Of a stretch of 64,000 nucleotides of DNA, positions 1-64,000 are shown piece after piece. Positions within the stretch are counted from its first letter, which is position 1. The number at the start of each line of letters is the position of its first letter. Source of the DNA: a virus; IMG/VR virus record IMGVR_UViG_3300049846_000430, positions 49,401 through 113,400 of that record. One strand, written 5' to 3'. The position numbers and the translations under genes were made by a program. The notes beneath the pieces are model-generated. The model was given only the letters and a program-made list of their open reading frames with translations, did no database searches and was not told the origin of the DNA.

Positions 1-3000
1 AACTTTGATAGATACTATGCTCACCCAAAGTTTGAAGAACTTGGTTGGCAACCATATGCCAATAATGAGGAATACTATAATGCCAACTCATCTACATGGG
101 ATGATTCTGTTAGAATGTGGGGTCAGTTTAGTGGATTATTTGGTACTGGTTTTGTAAGTGGTTACCGTTCTATTGCTGATCTTTTTGATGGTGATGACTA
201 TTTATCAACTGCTGACTTAGATAGTGCTACAGAATTCTCAGATGCAATGAGAATAGGTATGTCATCAAGAGAAGGTTTTATGGCAGGAATTAATAATTTT
301 GCACTTAACTCTGCTTATACCTTCGGTATTATTGGCAGCATAGCAGCAGAAGAACTTGCTTTAGCTCTTATGGCTTCAACAGGTGTTGGTGCAATTCCGG
401 CAGCTGCAAGAACAGGTGCAAATGTGACAAGAGCTGGAAGAGCTATAGTAAATTTCTTTGATGTAGGTAAAGCATTAAATGCCACAAGACAAATGCTTAA
501 AGGTCTTAATCAAGCTGATAGAGCAAGAGACTTTTATAACACAATGAGATCTGGTGGTAAGTTTGTTGGTGATTTCTTTTTACCTGAAACTATGGCCGCA
601 ATCAGATCTATGAACACAACACAAAATGGTGTTCAAAATCTTTCAAATTTATCTAAAGCTGCAAGAGGATTTGGTGGTTTCTATAGAGATTTAAGAGGTA
701 TTAATCTTGCCATGTCTGAATCTAAGCTTGAGGCAGGTATGGTGTATAATGATAAGTTTGCTGATATATCCGCAAATCTTAATGAAAAGAATGGTGGTAC
801 AGGATTAACTCCCACTGATGTTGCTAAAGCACATGATGTTGCAGCTAAATCATCATTTGCCACTCTATGGTGGAATGCTCCATTAATTTACCTGAGTAAT
901 AAGATTGTTCTTGGTACTGCACTTGGCGGTATGAATAAAACTCTGGGAAGAGTATTTGATGAAAAACTTACAGGCTTTGGTAAAAGACTAATTAGAACTA
1001 AACCATTAACTGATGCTAGTGGTAAGATATCAAGAGATGTTTTTGAAGATGCTGGTGAAGGAATGTTTGGTGGTCTTTTACCATCAATGAAAAGAATTAA
1101 AGGATACACTGTTGGTGGATCTCTTAAAGCAGCAGGACATGGTGCCGCAAGATACTTTGCTGCAAACTTAACTGAAGGTGCTCAAGAACTTGCACAAGAA
1201 GCTATTGCTGTTGGTACTAAAGATTACTATACTCAATTGTTTGAAGATCCTGCAGCTGCCGGTTATGATGTATTTAAAACAGCATTGAGTTCTGCAATAA
1301 GTAGTCAAATGAATGCTCAAGGTTTTGAAACATTCATGTCTGGATTTATGATGGGTGGTGTAGTACAAGGTCCTCAGAAACTATTGTTTCAGGGACTGCC
1401 TAATGCTATGCAGTATACCTTTAATAGAGAGGCATATGATAAATACAAAACTGCTAAGAATGATTACATTCAGAACCTTGTAAAGACTCATAATGAAGCA
1501 TGGAATACTATGGCTGATGATCCAACAGCAATGTTTGATCCTACTAAACTAAACTTCCTGGTTCAGAAACAAGTGGCTTCAGAGATGAAGCAGTCTGCAT
1601 ATGTAGATGATGTTTTTGGTTTTATTGATGCAAAAGACTTTGGTAAGTTTAATCAGATGTATACCATTTTTAGCAATGGTACAGCAAATCAATTTAAAGA
1701 TCAACTTCAAGGATTTCAATCATTAACTGATGAAGAACTTAACCAAGCATTTCCTGGATTTAAAGCTGACATCAAGAGTGGAAAGTTTAGAGAAAGAATA
1801 GACACTACTCTTAATCAAATTGATGAAACTGAAAAAGCTTATAATGATGCTCAAAATAAATTTCAAAATCCTTTTGATAGTAGAAAATTCAAAAAGGGTA
1901 CAAAAGAGTTTATAGATGAAGCATTGAAAGAAAGAGCTTTTGAACATGCCAAGTATCTTTACATGTTTACACAGGATGGCTTTAAAAGAGCTGTTGAAAG
2001 AGCAGAAAGTATTTACAGTGAAATGGCATCTGAACCGGTAATTTCAAAGATTGCCGCTAATGATCTATCTGTTCTTATGGATATAGATAGTATTAATAAT
2101 GAGTTAGCTGTACTTTTAAAAGAAGCATCAATTGAAGCAACAACTCCAGAAGAAGAAAAAATTGCTGCTGATAAGACTGAAAGGATGATGCATTTAACTG
2201 AAATCAAAAAAGTTCTTACAGATCCCGGCAACCTAAACTCTAATGGTATTCTTGATAGAAGAAAGATTAATAAGCTTTACAAACCATTTCAGAATTATGT
2301 AAACTTCTTGGCTAAGAGTAAGAATGACTTTGTGAATAAGGATGCTGTTGTAAATGCCCTTAAGAAAATCTCTGATTATAACGCACTTAAAGAGAGAGCT
2401 AAAGTTTATGATAAAGCTATTGAGTATCTGAATAATCCAGAAAGACTTACTGAAATGGTTAATAGAACCAGAGCCATTTTTGAAGACTTATTCCGGAACA
2501 ATAAAACAATGTTTGAAAAGAACATTAAGAAGCATGTTAAAAATCTTGAAGCAAATGAATTCTTAAACAAGCTTGTTAAGATTGGTGTATATCCAAATGC
2601 TGATCAAGTTGTTGAGTTCTTAAAAACAGGTGATGTAAATGTGTTAAAAGAATTCTTTTCTGAAGACGGGGTTGTAGATGTCATGAATGATCCCAAAAGA
2701 TTTCTTCAAATTGCAGGTCTTGTCAGAAGTTATAATGAAATAACTGGTAAAGAAGAGGTAAAAGAAGAGACAGAAGAAGAACCTGAAGAAGAAGCAGCTG
2801 AACCAGGAGCTAAACAAAAAAGCTTTGAAGATACATTAGATGATCTAGATATAGATACTAGCAGCATGCCTGGTGTTAAACCAAAACCAGCAAAAGAAAC
2901 AGTAGTTGAAACCAATGATCCAAGTCAATCTCCTTATGGTAAAAAGATTCTTGAGGAGGTATACAATAAATATAGAGCTGAGCAGCTTGCTATTGGTAAT

Positions 3001-6000
3001 ACATACTTGCCATATAATGAATGGGCCAAGACTGAAAAAACTCAAACTGTAATTGCAGCACTTCAAGCACTTAAGGTAGCATGGGCAAAGACTGTTACTA
3101 AAGAATCTCTAGCTAAACGTGGTACTGATGTTTCAACTCCTCAACTTGCAGAAGCTGCAATTAAGTTTGTAATAAAGCAGGATGTTGGATTTTCTCAATG
3201 GCTGCAGTCAAAGAAAGATGAACCATCAGTTAGAAAAGTTCTTGATGAAGCAGGTCTAACATTTGATGCGTTGGCACCAGTTGCACCGGGTAAAAATGAA
3301 GGTAAAGATTCTGTTGTTAAAGATAAGAAGAATACCAAGTGGCACAAGAAAGGTCCGGGTGTAAATATTCTTAAAATTACTAGTAGTGATAATGAGGGTA
3401 ATAAAACTACTTATTATCAGTTGGTAGATAATAATGGTGATGGTCTTTCAGAAGCAATACTAAAAGCTGCCGGTGTATCAATAAACGGTACTTATAGTAA
3501 AGCTAAAGCTGCAGAAGAAGCTCAGAAAAAGATTCTTGATGCTATGCCTGATACTACACCATTTCAATTTGATGGTGTAATGGTAAGATTTGGTGCCACT
3601 GTTACAGATAATAAAGGTAAAGAGTTTATTGTTCTTGGCACACCATCTAAAGTTGCAAAAGGTGGCAAGTTGTTTCTTTTACCAAAAGAGAAACAAACTT
3701 TAAAAGGAGTTAAAGAAAGAGAAAAAGCCTCAATAAAAGTTTCAGAAGGTGAGTTTAATGGATTCTATACTGTAGAAGATCTTAAGTTTAGTGAGCCAGT
3801 TGACAAAAATGTAAGTAAGCTCACTGTTGTTGATCTTCTTAAAAGCTATCCCCGTAACAATAGAGGTGAAGAAAGGGCTGAAGCTCAAAAAAGATTTGAT
3901 ATCATTATGAATGCTGTTACAGCAGAAGAATTTGAAAATGATATTGAATTTGTTGTTAGAAGAAATGAGGGTGCTGGTTCAGAAACAGGTCCATATAGAG
4001 CTGGTAGTAAAGAGCCTAACCCACAAATAATAAAGACAACTGAGACATACAACATTGGAATAAGAATTGGTAATCCAGCATTACAACAAAGACTGGATGC
4101 AATGCTTGAAGAAAAAGGATTTGTTCCTAGTGATTCTGCTGATGGTATCATTGGTTTCATGCCTAATAACTCATATAAACTTCTTGATAAAAATGGCAAG
4201 CAAATCAGTATTTTATCTCTTGATCCAGAAAACTTTGATCAATACTTTGGTGGAAGAGGTACTCTTCAAGACATAAAGACTGCCTATGCTACACAGCAAC
4301 TTCTTGTGAATGCTATCTCAGAACTAATAGGTGAGGCTAGTTTTGCAGTTGTAAAACCTTCTGAGTTAAAAGACAAGGTAACTTTTAGTTTCCAAAGTTT
4401 ATACAAGCAAGATGCATTACCAATATCACTAGATCAGCTTAATGATTATTACGGTACTGAAGATGGCAAAGGTTACACTGTTGATGGTAAGAATGTAATC
4501 ATATATGATAACAAAAGAGTTAGAACAGAAAAAGGATATAGTTATAGCACAACAGTTGTAAGTAATTTAAAACCTGGTAAAAGACTCAGTGATCTATCTG
4601 ACAAGATTGAAGATGAACTAAAAGCTTCAGGTAAATGGGAAAAAGCAACTGACCCAGTGGCAGGTCTTGGCCGTTATGTTATTGTAATAAGACAACCCAA
4701 TGGTGAACTTACTCTTGCTCAGCTTAAACAAAACAAGATAGATAAAGAAGAAGTATATGGATTTATTAAAGAACTTGTGCAAAGAGCTCAGGATACAGTT
4801 GACAATAACATTGAAAATATTGATGATCTTCCAAGAAATGCTTTAGGGGTTATAACAAATACCAAAGATGCTAGAGCTAAGAATCTGGATTATAATTATA
4901 AATGGAATGAAGAATTTAACAACAAGTTTTATCTGGCTGAGATGCCCGGTATAGATGTTGAAATGAAAGTAACAGCTTGGGGAAGAATTGAAATTTCATT
5001 TTATGACAAAAAAAATAAAGAATCATTAACTGCCGCTCCTCTGAAAATATTCCCAGAGCTATTTGCAAAAGCACTTGCAGATCCTCAAGAACTTTTAGAT
5101 AAGATTCAGAGTCTTTTAGATTCGGATCCAACCCTTAAGAAACAAAAAATTTCTGTTCAACCTCAAAACTTTAGAGCATCATTTCCTGAAAGCAGAGATG
5201 CTCAAGTAATTATTGATAATACAAAAACTCAACTTGATCCTAGAGTAAGATTTGATTATAAGATTATTGTTACAGGTGATTCAAGTCAAGTTCAAGCATT
5301 GGCTAACATCTCTACTCCAATTACTCCAGAAGATATTACTGCTGCTCAAGGACCAGTTTCTGAAGATACATTAGAACATATTGCTAAAAAGCTTAATACT
5401 CCTGGTTCTACACTTTCTAAGTATGAACAAGAGATCTATAACATCAATCAATCTAGAATTGAAAAGATAAGAAAAGATCTTGCCGGTAAATCAAGTCTTG
5501 ATACAAGTGAGGATACATATGATGGTATTAATCAGATGTCTGATGATGAATTCAACAGCTATGCTGATGATGAGTTTATGATGCTTCCTCTTGACATTAA
5601 GAATCAAATTGCTGCTAAAATTCTAAAGACTGGTGTAGCAAGTCTCTCAGCTAGAGAGAGGCAAGTAATGAACAGTGATGCCGGCTCCATGATCAATGGA
5701 TTAGTATCTAAACTTGTAAGTGAAGCTGTAAACACACCTTCAGAAGTTGCACCTGTAACTGAAGAAACTTTTACTCAAGGTAATGAAATAGAACAGATCA
5801 AAGCTGAAATTGCATCATTGAAGTTACAAATTGATGCAAGAGAAGAGTTACTTATGAAAGAGTCTTCTAATCCTAAAGAAAGCTTTACTAAAATAAATAA
5901 TGATTCAGAACTTAAAGCTTTAAAGAAACGAAGAAATGATCTAAACAATAAACTTATAGCAAATAAAATCCTTCCAGCAGCACCTCTTACCCCGTATGAT

Positions 6001-59957: not shown

Positions 59958-59974
59958 ATGTTTGTTATTAAGGT

Positions 59975-60160
59975 TTATTCTGAATGAGAGGCATCACCGT
60001 CCCAAAAGTCACATTCAGTTAGAGACTCATGGCACTGTTGACACATGTGATAATCATCACAGGTACAAGTAAGATCAGGAGAAATACTGTAAAGCATAAA
60101 CTTATCAGCATCTTCCTGTGCAAACTCACCGTTTACTTTGAAAAATTTCATAGATTCCAT
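59975..60160 (-). CDS. Small Cys-rich protein
   Basis: CTCDDYHMCQQCH. Confidence 0.5.
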   Translation of the reverse strand: MESMKFFKVNGEFAQEDADKFMLYSISPDLTCTCDDYHMCQQCHESLTECDFWDGDASHSE

Positions 60161-60311
60161 TTGCAAGATAGATTAAGGTGGTGAGAAATGTAATGAGAAC
60201 CATAAAGAGATGCACATATGCAGGTCCTGGTCCATCATTAATTAACAGATGAGTGGATACAATAAAGCACACAAGTGATAATGTACCCATGATGAATGAA
60301 AGTGTTTTCAT
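60126..60311 (-). CDS. Small 2-TM membrane protein
   Basis: ATG 60311 after an AAACCTAATC leader. Confidence 0.6.
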   Translation of the reverse strand: MKTLSFIMGTLSLVCFIVSTHLLINDGPGPAYVHLFMVLITFLTTLIYLANGIYEIFQSKR

Positions 60312-60763
60312 ATATTTAGTTTGATTAGGTTTCAGAATTAAAAGGGCTACCTTGATCATCTTAGGTTCCTCCCTTTTGTAGATTTGACGTACACATAGCA
60401 CTGCATACACTGACCTTTTAAATAAATAATACCATTGTTACTTTATTGCTCTGTTCACAATGATAGAAGACTTACCATTTCCCTTACTTTGTCAAATCAA
60501 GTTTTTCAGGAATACTCTATTCTTCTGCTTTTGTCTTACCCCTCTGCACTCAGTTGTTATGACGTAACAGGTTCGTCTAAATGGTCTCCGAAGTCCAAAT
60601 AACAACTGCTCACCCTTGGGAGCTGATTAATCAGTGTTCTCTACACTCAATGATGAAAAGAGTGATGGGAATTGAACCCATATTAATCAGGTGGTTTCAC
60701 ATCTTACATTTGCATTACCACATGCTTATTCTAGCGGTTTATTTCACCCGCCAAAATCTTCAA

Positions 60764-61768
60764 TGTAAAAAGTCTTTATATCCACGTGAGAATGGTGCAT
60801 TAATAATGGGAGAGATTTGTGTTGTAGGTACTCTCCCGGTGACCTGCTGACTAGGCTTTCCTTTTGGCTCTTACATCCCAAAGTCATAAGGGAACGGCAC
60901 ATCTTAGTTTGTTTCCATAAATTTTGGTGGCTAACCGGATTCAAGGGATTTACATTTCCAAAGCCATAAGGAAAACACCACTGTGAAAAAAAACTGGTGT
61001 AGGTGGACGTTTTCATCTCCTAATTGACCAGATAGAGAAATAAAGGCTGAGTGTTGACCTTCATTCTGATAATTTTGTAACCTTTCGGTCACTTACACAC
61101 ACTCTGGATTACTCCAAAGTATATCAGATAGCGAGTAGACTAACTACCATGTACTTTCCTGCTTATATATGCTTCCTTTTCAACCAAGTGTCTTGCGGAC
61201 CAAAGAGGATGCCTCCTCACCTTAGATTTACTCATTCTACATCACATTCTCATCCTTGCGGGACTTACTGTGCCCTCATATTACAGAGGGATAACGCTAT
61301 TTTCAGCTGGAAAGATGGTTGGCTTTTGCTCAATTTTTTAATTGTTTAAGTAAACAATGCCAAGATCCAGGATGTGCAACCATGCATCTATCATGCTTCC
61401 TTTTGAGAAGTTTAGATAGTACACCCCAGTGTAGATTACCAGTCTACGTTGCTTTGTGATACTGTTACCGCACCACTTGCAATGGTCTCAACCCTTGAGT
61501 TTTTGGTAAAACTCTTGAGTCAGTACCTACAGATTCCCTTATTGTGCTTTCACACTCAAATCCCTTGGCAGGGATTCAACACTCAGATGATAATCCTCTG
61601 TGTTGATTGTCTGCATGCTTACATGGATTAGGTTTCCCTAACGCAAACTCACCTTGTTCAAGTGGTTCACTTTAATCACCATTACTGGTTTTATCCTAAC
61701 GACCATAAACAGCCGTGTCTGTTAGTTCAGAGCAAGCTCCTTAACGCATACACCGTGGATATTTTACA
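60764..61768 (-). ncRNA. Putative large structured non-coding RNA (GOLLD/ROOL-like class, family unassigned)
   Basis: No credible ORF; end-to-end pairing; many GNRA-capped hairpins on the - strand; 11-bp long-range loop pairing. Confidence 0.65.
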
Positions 61769-61922
61769 ATCCTGTAGGTAGACAAGTATGCTTAATGGTC
61801 TTTAAGGGTAATAGACCAAACCCTGTTCATTATGTACTCAGTTGAACTCTGGCCAGTAACTTACTGGATAGGATGCATTCACTAGATTAGAGTGAGAACA
61901 ATGCCCAAACAAACTCACTTGG

Positions 61923-61955
61923 AAAGTGTACCCTGATTTCTCAGGGATACACTTT
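61923..61955 (-). terminator. 14-bp GAAA-capped hairpin (terminator or processing site)
   Basis: AAAGTGTA-T-CCCTGA-GAAA-TCAGGG-TACACTTT just after stop 61967. Confidence 0.6.
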
Positions 61956-61966
61956 AGAAGATATCC

Positions 61967-62350
61967 TCAGTAGAATATCTTATATCTTTTGGGATCTTCA
62001 TCCACTGGACCTGTAGCATCCTCAAGTGGAGGAATAGGAGTGATATCTAGATACCAGGTATCCAGACTACGTTCATGAGAGCACTCAAGCCACATACCAT
62101 TCTCTAAGAGAACTTTGTCAGCAATGAGGTCATGCTTGATTACCTTGAGGGCAACAGAAGCATAACTTTCAGGTCTAGTGAATTCATAACCAGCAGGTGG
62201 TTTAGGAAAGAAAGGACTTTCCTTACCAACTCTGGTAACAAATGATTCACGCTCTGTGATCATGCCTTTAGCAAGCTTAGACACGTACACAAACAACTCT
62301 GGTCTCTGAGCAAGTACCACCTGCTCAAGAAGGTTTTGAAAATTTTCCAT
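61967..62350 (-). CDS. Hypothetical early protein, paralog of 62415-62783
   Basis: Shared LEQVVLAQ.PELF.Y..KL.K.MI...FP..P.GY.F..PESYA.....VIKHD.I. Confidence 0.8.
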   Translation of the reverse strand: MENFQNLLEQVVLAQRPELFVYVSKLAKGMITERESFVTRVGKESPFFPKPPAGYEFTRPESYASVALKVIKHDLIADKVLLENGMWLECSHERSLDTWYLDITPIPPLEDATGPVDEDPKRYKIFY

Positions 62351-63199: not shown

Positions 63200-63410
63200 T
63201 ATTAGCTATATAAAATTATTATAGCTTGTGTAACAAAAGAGAAAAGAGAATATGCTTGAATGTGTGTGAGTATGTATACCCACCCATAAATACATCCTTG
63301 CATATGCCCTTGCAGTACCCCTGCAGTAACTATATACAGCAGTTTGAATAGACAAGTGTGTAGAGACCGCTACACTTTAATCCCTGGACTGTTAGGATCT
63401 TGTTAAAGAG

Positions 63411-63448
63411 AAGGACTGACTACAGCTCAGTGGCTATAATCAGTCCTT
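63411..63448 (-). other. 16-bp RNA hairpin (terminator or RNase III-type site)
   Basis: Continuous only on the - strand, through two G-U pairs. Confidence 0.6.
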
Positions 63449-63464
63449 GAAAGGTTTCTGCAGA

Positions 63465-63854
63465 TTACTCTGCAGATTTGGCCTTCTTGGCCTTGGGCTC
63501 CGGAGGAGTGATGGAGTCTTCAAAGACTTCATCAGCCTCCACCCAGAGCATGCCGGTGGGCTTACCCTCCTTGTCTTTGACAGGAGCGGTAGAGAACCGG
63601 AAGCCTGGGATAGGAGTGCCAGGACCTTTAGCAAGGAGCTTGCTTGCAAGCCTTTTAAAGTCCTGGTGGTCCTCCCGCACAGGTAGACCTGTTTCAGCGT
63701 CTACCAGACACAGGATCCCGAAGGTGACCTGTTTCTGAGTGCGGGTTTTGAAGGCCATGCCTTCAATGGAGCATGCCACTGTTTCCAGTGGTGAGTCAGT
63801 CACAATAATCATAGATTTTGTGATCTTGCGGAAATAAACTTGTTTGTTTTGCAT
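63465..63854 (-). CDS. Hypothetical early protein
   Basis: ATG 63854 after an A-rich leader; visibly more GC-rich than the rest of the window. Confidence 0.65.
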   Translation of the reverse strand: MQNKQVYFRKITKSMIIVTDSPLETVACSIEGMAFKTRTQKQVTFGILCLVDAETGLPVREDHQDFKRLASKLLAKGPGTPIPGFRFSTAPVKDKEGKPTGMLWVEADEVFEDSITPPEPKAKKAKSAE

Positions 63855-64000
63855 GATATATGTAATTAAAGGGTTATTCATGTATGGGGTGCCAACTGGC
63901 TAAAAAGTAGGTGGGGAGCGGAATTTGGGGACCCCTTAAGAACCACACACATAAAATGAAAAATATGGTAGGAAAAATTTTTATCGGTTCCGGGAGTGGA

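Follow-up and report, generated by a model that had tools for sequence, protein, structure and literature searches.

The window analysed here, a stretch of viral DNA of 64,000 nt, makes up the right-hand 64 kb of an IMG/VR virus record of 113.4 kb, whose completeness is estimated at 97%. A large terminase is encoded at the left end of the record, which also contains open reading frames (ORFs) of 5070 and 2224 aa, and a replication module on the minus strand encodes a Sak4-like protein, a DnaB-like helicase and a second helicase. Because the helicase relatives among GenBank phages belong to Crassvirales of Bacteroides, Cellulophaga phages and the Flavobacterium Fipvunavirus, with identities of at most 29%, the assignment of the source to a crAss-like phage with a Bacteroidota-type host, as proposed in the first-pass annotation, appears reasonable, though distant. 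A 12.9-kb contig from a related mosaic phage (L185) joins homologues of the right-end genes to copies of the left-end genes that are 97-99% identical to positions 1332-3156 of the full record, so that the 113.4-kb record probably represents the complete genome in circularly permuted form. Elsewhere in the window, the GC content rises from ~0.35-0.40 to 0.50-0.55 at 63350-63800, over an ORF of 138 aa (63465-63881, minus strand), and this region displays 80% identity in L185.

Near the far upstream end of the replication module, ~1.65 kb (60314-61966) are devoid of a credible ORF, in line with the ~1.5-kb gene-free stretch described before; five candidate ORFs gave zero Pfam hits. Flanking and internal ORFs scanned with PHROG and Pfam gave nothing informative, the neighbouring 127-aa protein used as a synteny probe had zero relatives, and blastn of 60300-62000 against GenBank phages yielded no match. 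A perfect hairpin (61925-61951) likely represents the end of the upstream gene; its sole Rfam match, CRISPR-DR35, is at chance level. The nearest tRNAs of this genome are located 6.4 kb from the RNA described below, with no true tRNA within 6 kb.

Almost certainly, the minus strand of ~61040-61907 encodes a GOLLD RNA, a two-domain phage non-coding RNA of ~870 nt, which belongs to a divergent freshwater subgroup in environmental crAss-like phages. When 60200-62100 was scanned with all Rfam families, the GOLLD model (RF02032) aligned from end to end (model 1-416 of 416) with 61044-61429, at 132 bits and an E-value of 3.8e-36, and the same match was recovered in a whole-genome search, on the minus strand only. 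ROOL (RF03087) gave no match in this interval at E≤10, and other families were absent or at chance level. Both families had been named in the first-pass annotation, which postulated a giant non-coding RNA, perhaps of a new class: the structured minus-strand RNA and the link to GOLLD are confirmed, while the novelty of the class is lost to the full-length RF02032 match. Hence, the RNA is a divergent addition to the known GOLLD class and not a new RNA system. Its score of 132 bits lies below the curated Rfam gathering threshold of 150 bits, which is why a run at the default gathering threshold missed it. This threshold is an annotation cut-off rather than a biological feature, and homology is evident from the E-value together with the chain of homologues. 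With the Rfam model, the members of the freshwater subgroup (the window, L277, L220, L270, L280 and L279) score 116-137 bits and marine contigs that share the 5′-domain signature (L272, L059, L268, L226 and L271) 210-224 bits. As these marine sharers of the signature pass the cut-off, the window copy can be placed in a divergent subgroup that its 5′ domain connects to bona fide GOLLDs.

The anatomy is likewise that of a GOLLD. The window copy harbors the UCAAAAG loop, the CGCAA loops, the CUCAG terminal loop, the AGCAAAAG junction with an 18-nt spacing to GAAA, the conserved A-rich L14 loop and the GNRA contact-element loops; the linker is shortened relative to the consensus and two loops are cut to tetraloops. 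Size and layout correspond to the class, with a homology block of 868 nt whose 5′-most ~170 nt are variable and whose 3′ ~680 nt are common to all, as does the location in a 113-kb virus record with a terminase and crAss-type helicase relatives. The signature of the 5′ domain core reads CAGAGG..UAUC..CUGAGU...CAAUAAG and was not found in the supplements of Kretsch et al.

Homologues were drawn from viral and metagenome contigs by a tight GOLLD core pattern and the 5′-domain signature; an earlier loose GOLLD pattern, whose hits were mostly due to chance and lacked nhmmer similarity, was replaced. Eight close relatives define the extent of the RNA (Table 1), since similarity stops at the terminal CUCAG hairpin in every full-length one and the sequences downstream differ. 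As the Rfam model covers the conserved 3′ domain only, the 5′ domain lies at higher plus-strand coordinates and 60764-61043 is downstream of the 3′ end of the RNA, which moves the boundaries away from the 60764-61768 given previously. In place of the 5′-most ~170 nt, L270, L280 and L283 possess a tRNA and other sequence. Immediately after GOLLD, an imperfect hairpin and a U8 run could plausibly act, as we infer, as a possible terminator of its transcript; a hairpin with a U-run also directly follows GOLLD in L270 and L280. In L283 (OGVZ01000781.1), GOLLD breaks off in its 3′ half and continues into a 23S rRNA sarcin-ricin-like sequence (AGUACGAGAGGACCGGAGUG), a junction that is probably a chimeric metagenome assembly.

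Table 1. Features of the gene-free stretch, listed in the direction of the minus strand (window coordinates).
Position	Strand	Feature	Basis or remark
61925..61951	-	Perfect hairpin with GAAA loop, just past the stop of ORF 61967-62350	Sequence
61040..61907	-	GOLLD by homology, ~868 nt, 5′ end approximate	nhmmer blocks to L220, L185 (query 94-961)
61736..61907	-	Variable 5′ extension, hairpin CCAGU-AAGUU-ACUGG	Close-group alignment
61430..61735	-	5′ domain core, common to freshwater and marine GOLLDs	Alignment A1; helices covary (RNAalifold, pair counts)
61576..61606	-	Local hairpin UCAACAC/GUGUUGA around conserved AGAGG..UAUC..CUGA	Covarying versions
61044..61429	-	Conserved 3′ domain	RF02032 model positions 1-416
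61043..61061	-	Terminal hairpin (L27 equivalent), CUCAG loop, 3′ end of homology	Rfam match and homologues
60986..61031	-	Imperfect hairpin, then U8	Fold -10.3 kcal/mol, z -1.5
60802..61038	-	Insertion of ~237 nt missing from L185 and L220, with a short T(T)ATT repeat on its flanks	
60916..60985	-	Small pseudoknot motif, copy 1: loop UGGCU pairs with downstream AGCCA	
60837..60905	-	Small pseudoknot motif, copy 2: UGACU/AGUCA	
60808..60837	-	GGGAGAG...CUCUCCC hairpin closing motif copy 2	GAGAG hairpin and U-run at this place in other phages
60764..60801	-	Segment directly abutting GOLLD in L185; carries the claimed 3′ closing strand, outside the fold of the RNA	

Both covariation among homologues and folding energy speak for the structured minus-strand RNA predicted from the first inspection. 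In alignment A1 (16 sequences), from which the tested structure was itself derived, 59 of 90 consensus pairs show compensatory changes and 95.3% of the cells are paired, albeit with few independent events, since many of these changes follow a single freshwater/marine split. The covariation score amounts to 0.631 versus 0.262 after shuffling (0 of 500 shuffles reach the observed value), and registers slid by 1-3 columns are 34-41% paired with a score of ~0.1. The minus strand folds with -247.6 kcal/mol (z -2.86), better than the plus strand with -219.7 kcal/mol (z -2.13).

The distribution of the RNA among relatives is uneven. L277 matches the window throughout with 98.9% identity. L220 reaches 96% over 61042-61794, and its GOLLD follows a tRNA-Met (a tRNA also lies directly upstream of GOLLD in L270); nothing in the rest of the 6.9-kb L220 locus resembles any part of the 113-kb genome, be it at the DNA or the translated level. 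A copy this similar in an unrelated locus points to a recent transfer of the GOLLD cassette. In L185 (84% identity), the homologues of the genes at 59974-60311 flank GOLLD on the opposite side, and identities of 63-70% apply to L270, L274, L279, L280 and L283. No GOLLD match at E≤0.01 was obtained in ten related crAss-like records, whose helicases are 31-71% identical and seven of which are at least 87% complete, and a search of 36 helicase-syntenic loci with the region (nhmmer) returned nothing. Yet, L280, with a helicase of 49% identity, carries GOLLD, and helicase, exonuclease, terminase or Sak4-like proteins related to those of this genome (25-49% identity) are encoded on the marine GOLLD contigs L273, L226/L282, L267 and L275. 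GOLLD with this type of 5′ domain therefore recurs patchily in environmental crAss-like phages. The element behaves like a mobile cassette, with a near-identical copy in an unrelated locus, ten relatives devoid of it and another gene order around it in a close relative. Comparison of L185 with this genome also marks the GOLLD neighbourhood as a mosaic hot spot beside highly conserved genes.

Directly downstream of GOLLD, the window differs from L185 and L220. In these two loci, UAUUAAUGCACCAU immediately follows the GOLLD hairpin, while the window resumes the same sequence only at 60801, and 60802-61038 is therefore an insertion. The 3′ extension that had been attached to a core of ~750 nt is thus a separate insertion missing from relatives. 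It begins with the imperfect hairpin and U8 described above, after which come two copies of a small motif, an H-type pseudoknot of ~60 nt (CCUUAU-NN-CUUUGG..AUGUAA..UUAGCNN). This motif is built of a hairpin of 4-5 bp with the loop UUAU-NNC-UUU, followed by a conserved AUGUAA and then by UUAGCNN. By a strict pattern, the motif was detected in 38 viral contigs, with the downstream partner in 27 instances; beside the window, examples are L226:828-897, L289:1419-1488 and some 20 further loci. Loop and downstream pentamers complement each other in 22 distinct instances, with five covarying versions (UGGCU/AGCCA, UGACU/AGUCA, UUGCU/AGCAA, UUACU/AGUAA and UAGCU/AGCUA). In alignment A2 of the motif, 99% of the hairpin cells and 95.5% of the pseudoknot cells are paired, the covariation score is 0.368 versus 0.128 after shuffling (reached in 0 of 500), and slid registers are 29-47% paired; a third helix was dropped with only 67% paired. 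The motif has no match in Rfam, and the strict pattern produced 29 hits, all due to chance, in 185,579 prokaryote species genomes.

Many copies of the motif are followed by a GAGAG hairpin and a U-run, and this arrangement looks like a stand-alone small RNA. A riboswitch was considered and rejected, as there is no consistent downstream gene but just assorted small ORFs. In two crAss-like lineages, the motif directly adjoins GOLLD, on its 3′ side in the window and L277 and on its 5′ side in the marine L226, and in a third (L267) it is found ~1.1 kb upstream. Based on this proximity in three lineages, the motif could be a functional partner of the GOLLD cage, i.e. a cargo or a cofactor of assembly or release, or, more modestly, a new stand-alone class of phage small RNAs; this proposal is speculative and improbable. 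A general link between motif and GOLLD was not found, with the motif at one of 113 GOLLD-pattern loci. It is the only element inside 60764-61768 that is possibly undescribed.

Further RNA-like modules follow on the minus strand. An element at 60527-60634 with a 10-bp stem (CAGUUGUUAU/AUAACAACUG) is flanked by conserved CCCAAGGGUGAG...GAGUGCAGAGGGGUAA and has no match in Rfam; its counterpart at L220:2036-2160 directly follows GOLLD and carries a compensatory change from U-A to A-U in the stem. At ~60650-60750, a tRNA-like T arm (AUGGG-UUCAAUU-CCCAU), which the first-pass annotation had listed as a finding of its own, is accompanied by a 3′ acceptor-like strand. Here, Rfam returned only a tmRNA 3′-end fragment (E 0.013), and neither ARAGORN nor the Rfam tRNA model called a tRNA. 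A full-length tmRNA (RF00023, 64 bits, E 8e-23) is encoded at L268:744-1158 on the minus strand, ~1.5 kb from the GOLLD of this marine phage contig. The word (U)GAUUAAU/UAUUAAU occurs at or near the start of the downstream modules (60634-60640, 60684-60690 and 60799-60806) and may be a junction or recombination signal between them.

How much of this stretch is a single RNA can be judged against several alternatives. The first-pass annotation proposed a new RNA class of ~1 kb (60764-61768), closed by an end pairing and by a pseudoknot linking its 5′ half to the 3′ loop, a reading whose likelihood is now negligible. All sequences quoted for it are present, including the complementary 9-, 8- and 11-mers, the region is poor in ORFs and folds better than shuffled controls, and the local anatomy was read correctly, since the local elements correspond to Rfam consensus helices: the GNRA hairpins at ~61080-89, 61105-16, ~61256, 61544-55 and 61628-41 match the GOLLD consensus structure (Rfam alignment), and the junction stem 61065-71/61122-28 as well as the hairpin at 61043-61061 are helices of this consensus. 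However, besides the full-length GOLLD match, the end of homology at 61040 in all relatives and the insertion at 60802-61038, the pairing partners are not co-conserved. Only the window and its twin L277 can form the 9-bp end pairing (60778-86/61754-62). In L220, the 5′ site (AUAUCCACG) is identical with no complement within 1 kb downstream, while L185 keeps the 3′ strand, 22 nt past its GOLLD, and has three changes in the 5′ site; the UGAGAAUG site reads UGACAAUG in four relatives, in which its partner is absent. Moreover, among 300 dinucleotide shuffles of 60764-61768 (1005 nt), the longest perfect inverted repeat is at least 9 nt in 87% and at least 11 nt in 14%, and the long-range pairings are no better than chance. 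The 11-nt pseudoknot between the loop of 61043-61061 and 61576-61586 finds no support in homologues and turns out to be a by-product of a covarying local hairpin, in which the GUGUUGA half of the complement pairs with UCAACAC (61600-61606 with 61576-61582). Close homologues display the versions UCAACAC/GUGUUGA, UCAUUAC/GUAAUGA and UCGCUAC/GUAGUGA, and marine ones CACAUU/AAUGUG, while the 3′ loop (CAACACUCA) stays constant; only CUGAG/CUCAG, both invariant, remains complementary between the two sites. A pseudoknot from L27 to the 5′ domain also conflicts with the solved env-38 GOLLD, where both pairing partners of L27, P23 and J24/26, belong to the 3′ domain and one A-minor contact is all that connects the two domains (Kretsch et al., PMC12286853).

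If the 61040-61907 RNA is a GOLLD, it might instead be a decaying, non-functional relic, which would explain the sub-threshold score and would fit the shortened elements and the ten related genomes without GOLLD. This is very unlikely, as the freshwater subgroup as a whole scores in the same low range and keeps its pairing via compensatory changes, and a copy with 96% identity at a phage locus of no relation speaks for a unit that is maintained and mobile. Somewhat more room exists for a composite transcript, which is compatible with the GOLLD assignment: GOLLD may be the first part of a non-coding unit of ~1.6 kb (61907 to ~60330), whose 3′ modules, i.e. the two pseudoknot motifs, the tRNA-like element at ~60650-60750 and the long-stem element at 60527-60631, are co-transcribed and processed into small RNAs. 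The whole stretch lacks an ORF, all modules are on one strand, the 60527-60631 element comes right after GOLLD in L220, where its 10-bp stem shows a compensatory change, and the pseudoknot motif is directly 5′ of GOLLD in L226. Nevertheless, a hairpin and U8 come right after GOLLD, the modules occur independently elsewhere, with the pseudoknot motif at a single one of the 113 GOLLD-pattern loci, and their order varies among relatives, so that such a unit is possible but doubtful.

With the assignment to GOLLD, the RNA can be compared with well-studied relatives. GOLLDs measure 700-830+ nt, with conserved 3′ and variable 5′ domains, are found in phages, prophages and tRNA arrays, and are expressed at higher levels during phage-induced lysis; they form protein-free cages of 12 or 14 copies, in which the 5′ domains build the caps and the 3′ domains the rings, and the variable linker points inward (Kretsch et al., PMC12286853; 2026 review, PMC12990946). 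The window copy resembles the env-38 GOLLD (RF02032; 833 nt, 14-mer cage, PDB 9MEE; Kretsch et al. 2025, PMC12286853) in its two-domain layout, the alignment of the full 3′ domain model, its phage-borne nature, its similar length, and the UCAAAAG, AGCAAAAG and CUCAG landmarks. In contrast, it scores below the gathering threshold, has a short linker without tRNA, GNRA tetraloops in place of several loops and a terminal loop UCAACACUCAG instead of GUAAUCUCAG, and is hosted by a crAss-like phage. The GOLLD of Streptococcus agalactiae (700 nt, dodecamer, PDB 9L0R; reviewed in PMC12990946) is missing some helices and still forms a cage, with a different copy number; unlike the window copy, it stems from a Firmicute chromosome or prophage. 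ROOL RNA (RF03087) is similarly large, phage-associated, tRNA-linked and cage-forming, but unrelated in sequence and fold. According to the review (PMC12990946), which cites Morgado et al. 2020, a mycobacterial tRNA-array GOLLD contains an embedded tRNA-Phe. As far as described there, it shares the family and the link to tRNA with the window copy, whose linker lacks a tRNA and which has only the tRNA-like fragment ~300 nt downstream.

From its homology to the solved GOLLDs, the RNA probably has two folded domains, a variable 5′ one that forms the cap and a conserved 3′ one that forms the ring. During infection, several copies of it would then assemble by themselves, with no protein involved, into a closed nanocage via kissing loops and A-minor contacts. 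Judged by analogy, such cage assembly is fairly probable for the window GOLLD, and its transcription as well as any cargo can be presumed on the same grounds. The number of copies per cage is not predictable, as it is set by helices that differ between variants (12-mer and 14-mer cages are known). Leading ideas for the role of the cage in this class are that it may hold or sequester tRNAs or translation components.

Few natural RNAs are known to assemble into cages without protein, and GOLLD, which is one of them, is carried by environmental crAss-like phages of Bacteroidota-type hosts. No paper on GOLLD together with crAss-like phages or Crassvirales was found in the literature searched, which bounds that literature only. 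Since the whole freshwater GOLLD subgroup lies below the Rfam threshold, it is missed by routine annotation. The points added here are modest and leave the existing knowledge of the class unchanged; they provide comparative material for finding which elements of the cage are essential.
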